Shown here: positions 12,501 to 15,500 of the stretch, one piece after another
Layout of the letters: each line of letters opens with the position of its first letter
Position numbering within the stretch: position 1 is the first letter of the stretch
Assembly: GCF_044324785.1 (NCBI RefSeq)
Contig: NZ_CP172128.1
Reading direction: 5' to 3' (one strand)
Length of the DNA stretch: 64,000 nucleotides
From: Escherichia coli
GTDB lineage: Bacteria > Pseudomonadota > Gammaproteobacteria > Enterobacterales > Enterobacteriaceae
Made by a program: the position numbers

Positions 12501-15500
12501 TCAGTAATATCCGTCATGAGCTCTCAGCCTCCTCCTTCGTATTTCCGTCAGAAACACAAACGCCCCGCAGAGAAAATTCGCCAACATTCTCCTTTTTAAT
12601 GGCGCGCAATGCATCGCGGCAGGCCCGTTCGGTATGAAAGGCCTGGCTGTGCACCGCCAGTGTGGGCTGACGGGCATCACCGGAAGAGACATTAAAGGGC
12701 GATGAAAGCCAGAAAATCAGTAGCCACATGCGTCACACCTCGTCCTTTTTATGCGGGTATCTGGACAGAATATTGAGCGCCTGTAATGGCGCTTCATGCA
12801 TTTCACGGATACAACGGGCATCGGTGATATTTTCCCGGTAATGTGTGGTTTCCAGCATCATATGATGCATATGGAGCATCCGGGCCAGGGCTGCGCGGAG
12901 TTCTTCAATATGTTGTTCATGGGAATGCTGGCGGGGCTGTATCCGGCAGAGAGGGATAACCTCCACATCATCCGGGTGCGCGCGAAGCCACGCGTCAGTG
13001 ACTGCAATGTCGTCAGTGTAAAACCATGTGCCGGATGTCCCGTTGGCCAGAAAACGCATTTTCCAGGCTTCTGGGGTGGCGGTTGTGTTGTTATCTTTCA
13101 TGGTGCCACCACTCATTCAACAGGCTTAATGCTGTCCAGGCGCAGTCTGCTCAGACTGTCGTGGCTGCCACAGCGGCGTCCGGTGCTTTTGCTGTAGCAC
13201 TCCTGCCCCCTGATACACCATGCCGTTGGCGTTTCGTAGAGGCTGACACGTCGGGTTTTATCTTTAATGATGAGAAGCCCGGTGTGAGTTTTTGTCTTTT
13301 TCATCGGTGGGGTACAAACGCAGAAATTTTGTTGTCATTACATCATCAGTTTTAGCCTGCAGAGACGCTGAAAAATCAGCGTTTTCAGACCCTGTTCAGG
13401 TTAGTGAATATTCTTGCCTGGCCTTTCGGCAATATCAATCCCCTGGAGTTGCATGGATATGCCCATACCGTTGACCATGAGGCTGTTTATGGACTGAACA
13501 CCACATTTCATCATGAGCTCAAAACACAGTGCGCTGAGCATGCCGAGCGCCTCTTCTGAGGACTGGCAGTGTGTATTCAAAAGAGTATTGAACTGTTTAA
13601 CGATATCCGGGGTGAGGCACATACTTTGTATTTCGTCTTTCATGACTACTCCTTATTTCAGGCATTTTGCATTTTGGGTTAATAACACGAAGCCCGTAGA
13701 CGGAAAACCTGAGGCGTTCGGATGGGATAATTCCCGGGTATTTTCCTGTTCCGGATACAAAAAATATAACGGCATGAAAAGGATTGTGGCGGACAGGAAA
13801 ACAATTAGAATAGCTGCGGGCGCTTGAGGCTGTATGCCGAAAGCGTTTTGTGGACGGCATGCAGCAGAAAGCCCCAGGCGATCTTTTTATCAATCAACCC
13901 AGGGCCCACTGTAATGCCTCAACAACATTATAGTAGCCCGATGACGGCCGAAAGGCAATGGAGGGGCTGCGATGCCACAACGAACGTTTTTAATAATGTT
14001 AATCGTCGTCTGTGTGACGATACTGTGTTTTGTCTGGATGGTGAGGGATTCGCTTTGCGGATTTCGTATCGAGCAGGGAAATACGGTGCTTGTGGCAACG
14101 TTAGCCTACGAAGTTAAACGTTAACGGGCAACACGGCGGCAGGACATCTGCCGCCGGATTGTTGCGAAGGCTGACCTCAATGCGCCTTGTTTGTCTTTTT
14201 TACCGGACGATGGATCCCACTCCTCCTCATCAGTTCGTAGCAGAGTGTACTCAGCATGGCAAGTGCAGCTTCTGATGATTTACAGTGTGTATTCAGGAGG
14301 GTAAGAAATTGTTTAAAAACATCAGGGTTTATACTGGTGCTTTGATATTCGTTACTCATAGTATTTCCTTTCAGGTCATTATTACTTCCGGATTTAACAT
14401 GATGTCTGTAACCATAAAATAATGAACGTGTTCCGGGAGTCCTTGCCGTGTAGTTTCCCGTAAAAATACTGTTGTGCATTACATGTCATTAGGTGGAAAC
14501 CGATTGTGGCAGACTGAAAATCGATTAGAATAGCGGCGGGCGCTTGAGGCTGTATGCTGAAAGCGTTTTGTGGACGGCATGCAGCAGAAAGCCCCAGGCG
14601 ATTTTTTTATCAATCAACCCAGGGCTCTACTGTAATGCATCGACAACATTATAGTAGCCCGATGACGGCCGAAAGGCAATGGAGGGGCTGCGATGCCACA
14701 ACGAACGTTTTTAATAATGTTAATCGTCGTCTGTGTGACGATACTGTGTTTTGTCTGGATGGTGAGGGATTCGCTTTGCGGATTCCGTGTCGAGCAGGGA
14801 AACACAGTGCTTGTGGCAACGTTAGCCTACGAAGTTAAACGTTAACGGGCAACACGGCGGCAGGAAATCTGCCGCCGGATTGTTGCGAAAGCAAACCTCA
14901 ATGCGCCCTTTTTTACCTGGATTTCTGCAGCGCGTTTCAGCATAGCATGCAGTTCTGTGCTGATCCTTGCTTCCAGTCGGGCAGTTTGTGTTGCAGATGG
15001 CATGATTTGTACTTCCTGAATATACTGAACGGCAAATTGCCGTATTGTGCTAATTACAGTCTGATACAGGGACGGCAGACAGGCATTCTGCCTGAAAAGA
15101 AAAAGCCGGTTCAGAGAAAACCGGCTGACGGATTACCGTCTAACAGTTGGTCGCTACCTTACAATACTTCTGCAACAGGCACACCGGCAACTTTTTCCCA
15201 TTCTTTAACCCGATACCGAATCATCTGCGGGAAACGCTCTTTGTACTCATATCCACGTGCAGCCATGGTGTGCATGGTGTTGGCCAGCGTCCTTGCTGAG
15301 ATGCCGGAGATTTCAAGAGGGATCATCGGCAGACTCACATAGGTGGTGTGGATTTCCAGCTTGCCGTCTTCAGCAACTGTTCGGGTGAAGTTGTGAATAT
15401 CCAGACCAATCACATCCATGACATTGTTTGGGTAAATGCGCACATACAGCATGGTGCCGTTTTTAATGTCGATCCCGAAATAGCAACTCTTCGAGAATGA

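Follow-up and report, generated by a model that had tools for sequence, protein, structure and literature searches.

Two small reading frames beside a tandem pnd repeat on an IncK2/Z plasmid of Escherichia coli: an intact orphan gene and a probable recombination remnant

Introduction

How do two small proteins encoded beside a pair of almost identical toxin modules come to be so different from one another? The question is raised by a 64,000-nt stretch of Escherichia coli DNA (contig NZ_CP172128.1 of assembly GCF_044324785.1; “the window” below), which is part of an IncK2/Z (IncI-complex) conjugative plasmid. Two copies of the hok-type type I toxin-antitoxin locus pnd lie there in tandem, and divergently upstream of each is a small open reading frame (ORF) on the minus strand, termed here ORF-A and ORF-B. 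An initial annotation placed these frames at 13401..13643 and 14177..14479, where both were found. It held that a unit of gene plus toxin had been duplicated and that the proteins had diverged while the toxins stayed nearly identical. The pair is, on the present analysis, an ordinary gene and a recombination scar, and the earlier interpretation is largely wrong, for all that the features it described are present.

Results

The truncated reading frame and its junction

The similarity of the two small proteins was confirmed using BLASTP: residues 1–50 of ORF-A and residues 41–90 of ORF-B are identical at 30 of 50 positions (60%, E = 5e-23), and the consensus previously written for their shared core is correct. 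This homology ends at residue 50 of 80. Past ...RRSGIH, the ORF-B frame in the window enters the flank and tail of pnd copy 1. Because the homology stops at residue 50 and the last 10 residues are pnd copy 1 tail and flank, ORF-B is a 3′-truncated copy and not a second complete gene. The full 80-amino-acid (aa) B allele, ...RRSGIHSLDSLMLNGEGILIQLQGADIREKTGQHIH, is present in the single-pnd plasmids pSFE059 and pJNE151685-1. That the frames might be fragments of a larger gene had been named as a possible objection; it applies to ORF-B, which is a fragment of an 80-aa gene, and ORF-A is intact. The repeated unit accordingly comprises 50 codons, an intergenic region, and pnd, not a whole gene plus toxin.

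The start of ORF-B was also reconsidered. All other family members begin at the methionine equivalent to M41 of ORF-B (ATG at 14359). This codon is preceded by an AAGGA Shine-Dalgarno sequence, and the ATG at 14479 has none. Judged from these signals, the true start is probably the ATG at 14359, with the 100-aa frame over-extended; the shorter frame is called ORF-B′.

In a four-way DNA alignment, the pnd tail and flank switch to ORF-B between ...ACCGGACGA and TGGATCC.... The flank remnant at 14193–14210 is 100% identical to the comparison loci L004, L005, and L010. A 106-nt query spanning the junction was contiguous in 38 PLSDB plasmids, and its halves occurred separately in ca. 356 others. 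Among the matches listed, all 33 junction-spanning records (33/33) have the left part at ≥99.6% identity. Because every listed junction-spanning record has the same left part, a single event followed by clonal spread is indicated.

In sister plasmids that share the junction, ORF-B′ is interrupted by nonsense codons: a stop at E42 in pL889_NDM9 (L014) and stops at both Q17 and E42 in pDR19cip_scFOS (L015). The window and pL889_NDM9 have 9 differences over 1,801 nt, of which three lie in 148 nt of ORF-B′; all three change the protein (two replacements, one stop, zero synonymous). There are zero differences in ORF-A, intergenic region A, and pnd copy 1. The truncated protein has only the N-terminal helix motifs of the family. 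Its strand region and the family's C-terminal His are lost (the His at its own end is fortuitous), and its predicted isoelectric point (pI) is 9.4, compared to 5.4 before truncation. By these comparisons, the fragment is decaying.

Ages and parents of the two alleles

Each half of the tandem has a near-identical counterpart in a plasmid with a single pnd. ORF-A together with intergenic region A is 98.8–100% identical to pSTEC2018_607-b (100% over the intergenic region) and 99.1% identical to pE16EC0406-2. ORF-B′ together with intergenic region B is 98.6–100% identical to pJNE151685-1, the intergenic region being 100% identical to that plasmid and 97.8% identical to pSFE059. The pnd copies likewise match different lineages: copy 1 shares 98.8% identity with pnd from plasmid MINF_7C-5 (L005), and copy 2 shares 98.1% with that of pJNE151685-1 (L010 type). 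Compared with each other, the A and B alleles are only about 70% identical at the DNA level. Intergenic region A has no similarity to intergenic region B and is unalignable with it or with those of other allele types.

Comparison of the substitution patterns, which had been proposed along with the duplication model, gave a proportion of synonymous differences (pS) of 0.71–0.90, i.e. synonymous sites are saturated, and a ratio of nonsynonymous to synonymous rates (dN/dS) of 0.12–0.30 (0.12–0.21 for ORF-A versus other alleles). Because of these values, the small gene is regarded as a real coding sequence whose alleles are far older than the tandem. The near-identical counterparts in single-pnd plasmids, the saturated pS, and the different lineages matched by the two pnd copies together place the A/B divergence before the tandem. 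The copies are not closest to each other, and their divergence did not follow a duplication, as would be expected of paralogues that had arisen in situ. The claim that the proteins diverged beside static toxins is thus not supported.

The possibility that the ORFs are spurious was considered and ruled out by the dN/dS values, a constant length of 80 codons, and the Shine-Dalgarno sequences. ORF-A has AAGGAG 7 nt ahead of its ATG; it has 80 residues, as do other full-length alleles of this type, and the C-terminal His is present.

Regarding the parents, pE16EC0406-2 represents the left type. Its order is ORF-A - pnd - TnsA-like gene - excA, and it is 99.1% identical to the window up to 14210, after which the TnsA-like gene follows. 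The right side combines, as a mosaic, sequence from a B-type plasmid with sequence from one in which a TacA fragment adjoins pnd.

An allele cassette between conserved flanks

The window and MINF_7C-5 are 98–100% identical at 11700–13300 and at 13800–14210, and only 66–86% identical at 13300–13800, a sharply bounded trough that corresponds to ORF-A and its 5′ region and that was noted in comparison with L003 too. There are several deep allele classes as well as mosaic alleles and proteins (e.g. P0051, P0055, and P0058). Given this trough, the classes, and the mosaics, what needs explanation is the divergence of the small gene and not the conservation of pnd. In IncK/B/O/Z plasmids, the small gene and its promoter region appear from such alignments to behave as a swapped allele cassette. 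The pattern resembles the immunity regions of lambdoid phages, in which a variable gene and its control region sit between conserved flanks (here, a trough of ca. 500 bp at 66–86% inside 98–100%) and in which several deep allele classes and mosaics are found. The likeness is one of evolutionary pattern only; the small protein is acidic, and DNA binding or specificity is not implied.

Proposed origin of the arrangement

The structural account that we favor, and hold to be very likely, has three elements: an intact gene, a truncated allele, and a single illegitimate junction. The left partner would have been a plasmid with the order ORF-A - pnd - TnsA-like gene, in which the break fell 18 nt beyond the pnd transcript; the right partner would have contributed ORF-B - pnd DNA, broken inside codon 50–51 of ORF-B. 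One illegitimate recombination would have joined the two, with deletion of both the TnsA-like gene and the 3′-terminal third of ORF-B, to give gene - pnd - gene fragment - pnd. Clonal spread of this product would have followed among IncK2/Z plasmids, many of which come from chickens. ORF-B would represent the first 50 codons of a pre-existing B-type allele rather than a diverged paralogue. The contrast between proteins and toxins would have two sources: pnd differs by only 1–6% between these lineages, and the small gene with its promoter region would be an old hypervariable cassette that is swapped by recombination between near-identical backbones.

The small-protein family

The initial annotation did not recognize the protein family, and wider searches bore this out. 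No useful match for the small proteins was obtained from Pfam-A (single sequence and every member of two alignments), NCBIfam, PHROGs, PADLOC, a sequence profile of the PDB, or Foldseek searches of AFDB50 and BFVD. A literature search found no study of ORF-A or ORF-B. When 1.84 billion representative proteins were scanned exhaustively with HMMER, only 18 matches were returned; there is therefore no larger family to draw on.

Members are 80–85 aa long and acidic (pI 4.3–5.4), with a helix motif (S-x-E...L-(A)-M-L), a strand motif (G-I-x-M/L-x-L), and a C-terminal His; ORF-A has all of these. One Glu, one Leu, one Ile, and the C-terminal His are invariant across the 80-aa and 83-aa subfamilies. 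A first AlphaFold2 run with a shallow alignment gave a poor model (predicted local distance difference test score, pLDDT, of 61). Inclusion of distant members raised the pLDDT to 75 overall and yielded a pair of helices (pLDDT about 90) and, after them, three weaker strands.

The 80-aa type was found in 479 PLSDB plasmids at 60–100% identity. The distant 83-aa type, WP_001291964.1 of IncI1 plasmids, was found in at least 1,389 at ≥95% identity, including a record from E. coli O104:H4 C227-11; pnd itself matched 1,895 plasmids. The expectation that the family would be conserved in related plasmids was borne out by these counts, and within the IncI complex it is tightly linked to pnd. WP_001291964.1 is only about 24–26% identical to the 80-aa type. 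It is a distant homologue by hhalign (probability 95%, E = 4e-8, near-gapless full-length alignment) and shares the invariant residues noted above (Glu, Leu, Ile, and the C-terminal His); it also adjoins pnd. It differs in lying on the other side of pnd, downstream of the AgrB-like RNA of a dqlB locus, and in being highly conserved (≥95%), whereas the IncK/B/O/Z alleles are hypervariable.

In the IncI1 locus L011, the 83-aa member (5342–5593, minus strand) is convergent with pndA, and its stop codon begins 7 nt beyond the 3′ fold-back element of pnd. The protein carries the mistaken label “PndA” in at least one UniRef cluster. The AgrB-like antisense RNA (Rfam RF02891, dinQ-like dqlB locus) occurs at 5745–5832 (minus strand) of L011 and at 220–307 (plus strand) of the metagenomic contig L006; in IncI1 plasmids and in L006 alike, it shares the strand of the family member and precedes it by 150–180 nt. 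The L006 member is about 29% identical to ORF-A and about 49% identical to the IncI1 member.

Gene order was compared between L011 (trbA - finQ - pnd - member - dqlB - 58aa - excA) and the IncK locus L005 (trbA - dqlB - 58aa - nuc - HTH - ... - member - pnd - TnsA-like - excA). The two are circularly permuted, and recombination between pnd copies, as in the tandem of the window, could be a source of such rearrangements. A second, weaker sok-like Rfam match (86 bits) lies between trbA and finQ in L011 (3542–3699, plus strand); it may be a degenerate second hok-type locus. A link to Hha was considered on the basis of a single case: on a chromosomal contig (L007, 4680–5683), an 83-aa distant member lies directly downstream of an hha-family gene, with a 140-aa ORF of unknown function on its other side.

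Relation to pnd and possible function of ORF-A

The two repeats have the features of pnd/hok-sok loci: a Hok/Gef ORF, a sok-like antisense target, a terminator, and 5′-3′ fold-back. The small proteins, in contrast, are encoded on the opposite strand and outside the pnd transcript (apart from the last codons of the truncated copy), and they occur without pnd in chromosomes. There were 884 matches in E. coli chromosomes, and 11 of the 11 sampled end at the ORF start codon. In one such copy (L003), which is in an island next to iha/sat, the gene and the intergenic region are kept with only ca. 25 nt of the pnd promoter; the ORF-A homologue is accompanied there by three of the four small ORFs found downstream of ORF-A in the window, the 63-aa ORF not being annotated. 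The small ORFs are therefore not components of pnd that are always co-inherited with it. Further, a truncated or stop-containing ORF-B′ copy sits beside an intact pnd.

It was also asked whether the family always accompanies type I toxin-antitoxin loci; this was rejected, as only L006 fits among the four distant members and the chromosomal copy. Three distant members (L007, L008, and L012) are near fimbrial genes or an hha-family gene, with no Rfam-recognized type I toxin-antitoxin RNA nearby; the fourth (L006) is beside the AgrB-like RNA.

A few tentative statements about the intact protein can be offered. It is under purifying selection and is probably translated, and its charge and size suggest, as the most plausible if weakly held assignment, a cytoplasmic small protein-binding modulator; it is too acidic for a DNA binder to be likely. 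ORF-A is perhaps expressed from its own promoter, back-to-back with that of pnd. Intergenic region A presumably holds this promoter; a simple sigma-70 scan revealed no convincing promoter for ORF-A or ORF-B′. From its distribution, the function would probably be independent of pnd killing and linked to pnd by position, although our confidence here is low. Nothing in this sequence-based analysis supports a role of the small ORFs in pnd itself.

Discussion

On the duplication model, the small gene and pnd were duplicated in place, after which the proteins diverged under relaxed or diversifying selection and the toxins were held constant by RNA-structure constraint or gene conversion. The tandem layout with its 720-bp period, the heavy constraint on pnd (whole-transcript fold z = −6.75), and the 60% identity of the proteins against 95% for pnd agree with this idea. 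We nevertheless regard it as very improbable. Each half is 98.6–100% identical to a single-pnd plasmid of a different lineage, and the best matches of pnd1 and pnd2 also come from separate lineages; the flanking backbone differs by 0–5%, against saturation at synonymous sites; intergenic regions A and B cannot be aligned; and the second copy is short of 30 codons and ends in pnd flank. No more credit is due to the notion that ORF-B′ is a functional shortened paralogue (60 aa, or 100 aa as annotated) with a new role. Its frame is open in the window behind a good Shine-Dalgarno sequence, RefSeq annotates it (WP_370926038.1), and the exact 100-aa sequence is present on 232 contigs; but sister plasmids with the same junction have nonsense codons, the conserved strand region and invariant terminal His are gone, the tail residues are an accidental read-through of pnd flank, and every one of the three changes relative to pL889_NDM9 alters the protein. 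Junction formation from two pre-existing alleles thus remains our preferred account. Certain points weigh against it. The order of events is compatible with a cointegrate followed by a deletion or with a tandem duplication followed by allele replacement; ORF-B′, with its 60 open codons, could on the structural model be a two-helix peptide with some activity; and the family adjoins nearly every pnd of this type (479 + 1,389 family-bearing versus 1,895 pnd plasmids) in two arrangements, divergent upstream of pnd in IncK/B/O/Z and convergent downstream in IncI1. This link exceeds what would be expected of pure accident, although common descent of the backbone can account for it.

The same association could be taken to mean that these proteins act as functional partners of type I toxin-antitoxin loci, for example by modulating killing by pnd or dinQ-like loci or by using their promoters, each pnd having a cognate allele. 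We think this unlikely. The near-perfect co-occurrence extends over about 1,870 plasmids and two relative positions, the IncI1 and metagenomic members share their spacing from an AgrB-like antisense RNA, and the gene and its promoter region are swapped as a unit that abuts the pnd promoter. However, pnd copy 2 is intact while its supposed partner is truncated and gaining stop codons, in chromosomal copies the gene is retained in the absence of pnd, and no recognizable type I toxin-antitoxin neighbor accompanies three of the four distant members. All of the pnd-linked cases are on one plasmid backbone, and the synteny may for that reason be simply inherited. Hok/Sok-type systems (hok/sok, pnd) are complete without a protein factor, which also counts against a partner. 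A related and similarly doubtful thought is that the ca. 80-aa family is an unrecognized protein accessory of plasmid type I toxin-antitoxin loci (pnd, dinQ-like dqlB/agrB), a hypervariable cassette that gives allele-specific behavior. If so, it might tune post-segregational killing, or allow an IncI-complex plasmid to discriminate against or neutralize the module of a competitor, and the tandem in the window would be a snapshot of cassette exchange driven by pnd-pnd homology.

If the tandem is a scar, as we favor, the annotation of the region should change. The RefSeq 100-aa ORF-B′ is better treated as a gene remnant, and the 53-aa “antitoxin” beside pnd copy 2 is likewise a fragment. The intact gene retains some interest: its 500 bp differ more than any others between IncK2 backbones that are elsewhere nearly identical, and its orphan family sits in the conserved transfer/maintenance region of almost 1,900 sequenced resistance plasmids of the IncI complex. 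That family is widespread, pnd-linked, and hypervariable in IncK/B/O/Z plasmids; the pattern itself shows no new mechanism.

Features of the locus

The coordinates of all features are collected in Table 1. The gene order in the window is trbA - nuclease - HTH gene (HTH, helix-turn-helix) - small ORFs - pnd - pnd - excA - traY.

Table 1. Features in and around the tandem pnd repeat (window coordinates)
Feature	Position	Strand	Description
Four small ORFs downstream of ORF-A	12266..13304	-	63 aa, 122/127 aa, 71 aa, 83 aa; 4-nt overlaps or 3-nt gaps
ORF-A	13401..13643	-	Intact 80-aa orphan-family member; RefSeq WP_000650933.1, “hypothetical protein”
Intergenic region A	13644..13775		Allele-specific; separates the starts of ORF-A and pnd copy 1, which are divergent
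pnd copy 1	13776..14192	+	Complete hok-type type I toxin-antitoxin locus including promoter; from repeat comparison, Rfam, and Hok/Gef annotation
pnd copy 1, sok/pndB target region	13818-13974		Rfam RF01794
pnd copy 1, pndA	13972-14124	+	Intact 50-aa Hok/Gef ORF
pnd copy 1, terminator hairpin	14129-14161
pnd copy 1, 3′ fold-back element	about 14174-14187
Flank remnant, 18 nt	14193..14210		Ends at junction 14210/14211; in single-pnd plasmids this flank leads to the TnsA-like gene
ORF-B′	14177..14359	-	Truncated B-type allele; RefSeq frame 100 aa, 14177-14479 (WP_370926038.1)
ORF-B′, codons 1-50	14210-14359	-	Homologous to the family; 98-98.6% identical to full-length B alleles
ORF-B′, residues 51-60		-	RPVKKTNKAH; read from flank and tail of pnd copy 1, which also gives the stop codon
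Intergenic region B	14360..14495		Allele-specific; contains the annotated 40-codon N-terminal extension of ORF-B
pnd copy 2	14496..14913	+	Complete hok-type locus
pnd copy 2, sok region	14538-14695		Rfam RF01794
pnd copy 2, pndA	14693-14845	+	Intact 50-aa Hok/Gef ORF
53-aa ORF	14842..15003	-	TacA/DUF1778 antitoxin gene fragment (5′ part) joined to the pnd copy 2 tail

We take the repeats to belong with the pnd/hok-sok type I loci of IncI-complex plasmids, such as pndCA/pndB of R483 and R64. Their identity, put at ca. 95% by the initial annotation, is 92% between 13776–13905 and 14496–14625 and 96% between 13908–14192 and 14629–14913, with a period of 720–721, and both loci are complete. Each repeat has a Hok/Gef ORF of ca. 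50 aa, so annotated by RefSeq, and a sok/pndB region over the toxin mRNA leader; the PndA proteins differ by a single residue change (I/V). The full-length Rfam RF01794 (sok) matches scored 123 bits for copy 1 and 120 bits for copy 2, against a gathering threshold of 59. The fold-back pairing typical of Hok/Sok-type loci was checked on copy 1, where the ends of the mRNA fold back with GGCGCUUGAGG paired to CCUCAAUGCGCC (minimum-free-energy fold of 13819–14190, z = −6.75).

The four small ORFs downstream of ORF-A are probably co-transcribed with it, ORF-A being the first gene of a five-gene operon for small proteins of phage-like character (12266–13643). The 63-aa product belongs to PHROG 1226 and the 71-aa product to PHROG 3766, both of unknown function; the 122/127-aa product had no match, and the 83-aa product had a weak ANR-like match (NF033650, E = 0.007). 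A 207-aa HTH protein is encoded at 11693–12316 on the plus strand (NCBIfam ECs1377 family, E = 2.6e-90; PHROG 24243). Its gene converges on the cluster of small genes and shares ca. 50 nt with the last of their ORFs.

The 53-aa ORF on the far side of pnd copy 2 is named “antitoxin” or DUF1778 in databases. Only its N-terminal ca. 29 residues match Pfam TacA1 (PF08681, E = 4.8e-4). The homology to the pnd copy 1 tail ends at about 14913, and the remainder of the ORF is pnd tail. It is not a full-length ribbon-helix-helix antitoxin, and no toxin ORF (cognate GNAT) follows it in the window. Like ORF-B′, it is a remnant of plasmid-backbone recombination: both are a 5′ gene fragment followed by unrelated sequence with a fortuitous stop, and in ORF-B′ of sister plasmids nonsense mutations have accumulated. 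Unlike such remnants, ORF-B′ is still open here and is annotated as a protein by RefSeq.

A 2026 genome-wide association study (GWAS) of IncK2 plasmids reported an association with chicken plasmids for a hypothetical gene next to hok/sok that had earlier carried an antitoxin annotation (PMC12987596). The gene flagged there is most likely the TacA fragment at 14842–15003 and not ORF-A or ORF-B. Gene-presence GWAS on IncK2 plasmids can mistake such scars for signals of host association.

Beyond this fragment, the best-matching plasmid, NZ_CP029742.1, has ca. 500 additional bases relative to 15050–15900 of the window, in which there are an incomplete excA pseudogene and a small ORF named “HEAT repeat”. 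These bases are absent from the window, where excA starts directly (15159–15803).

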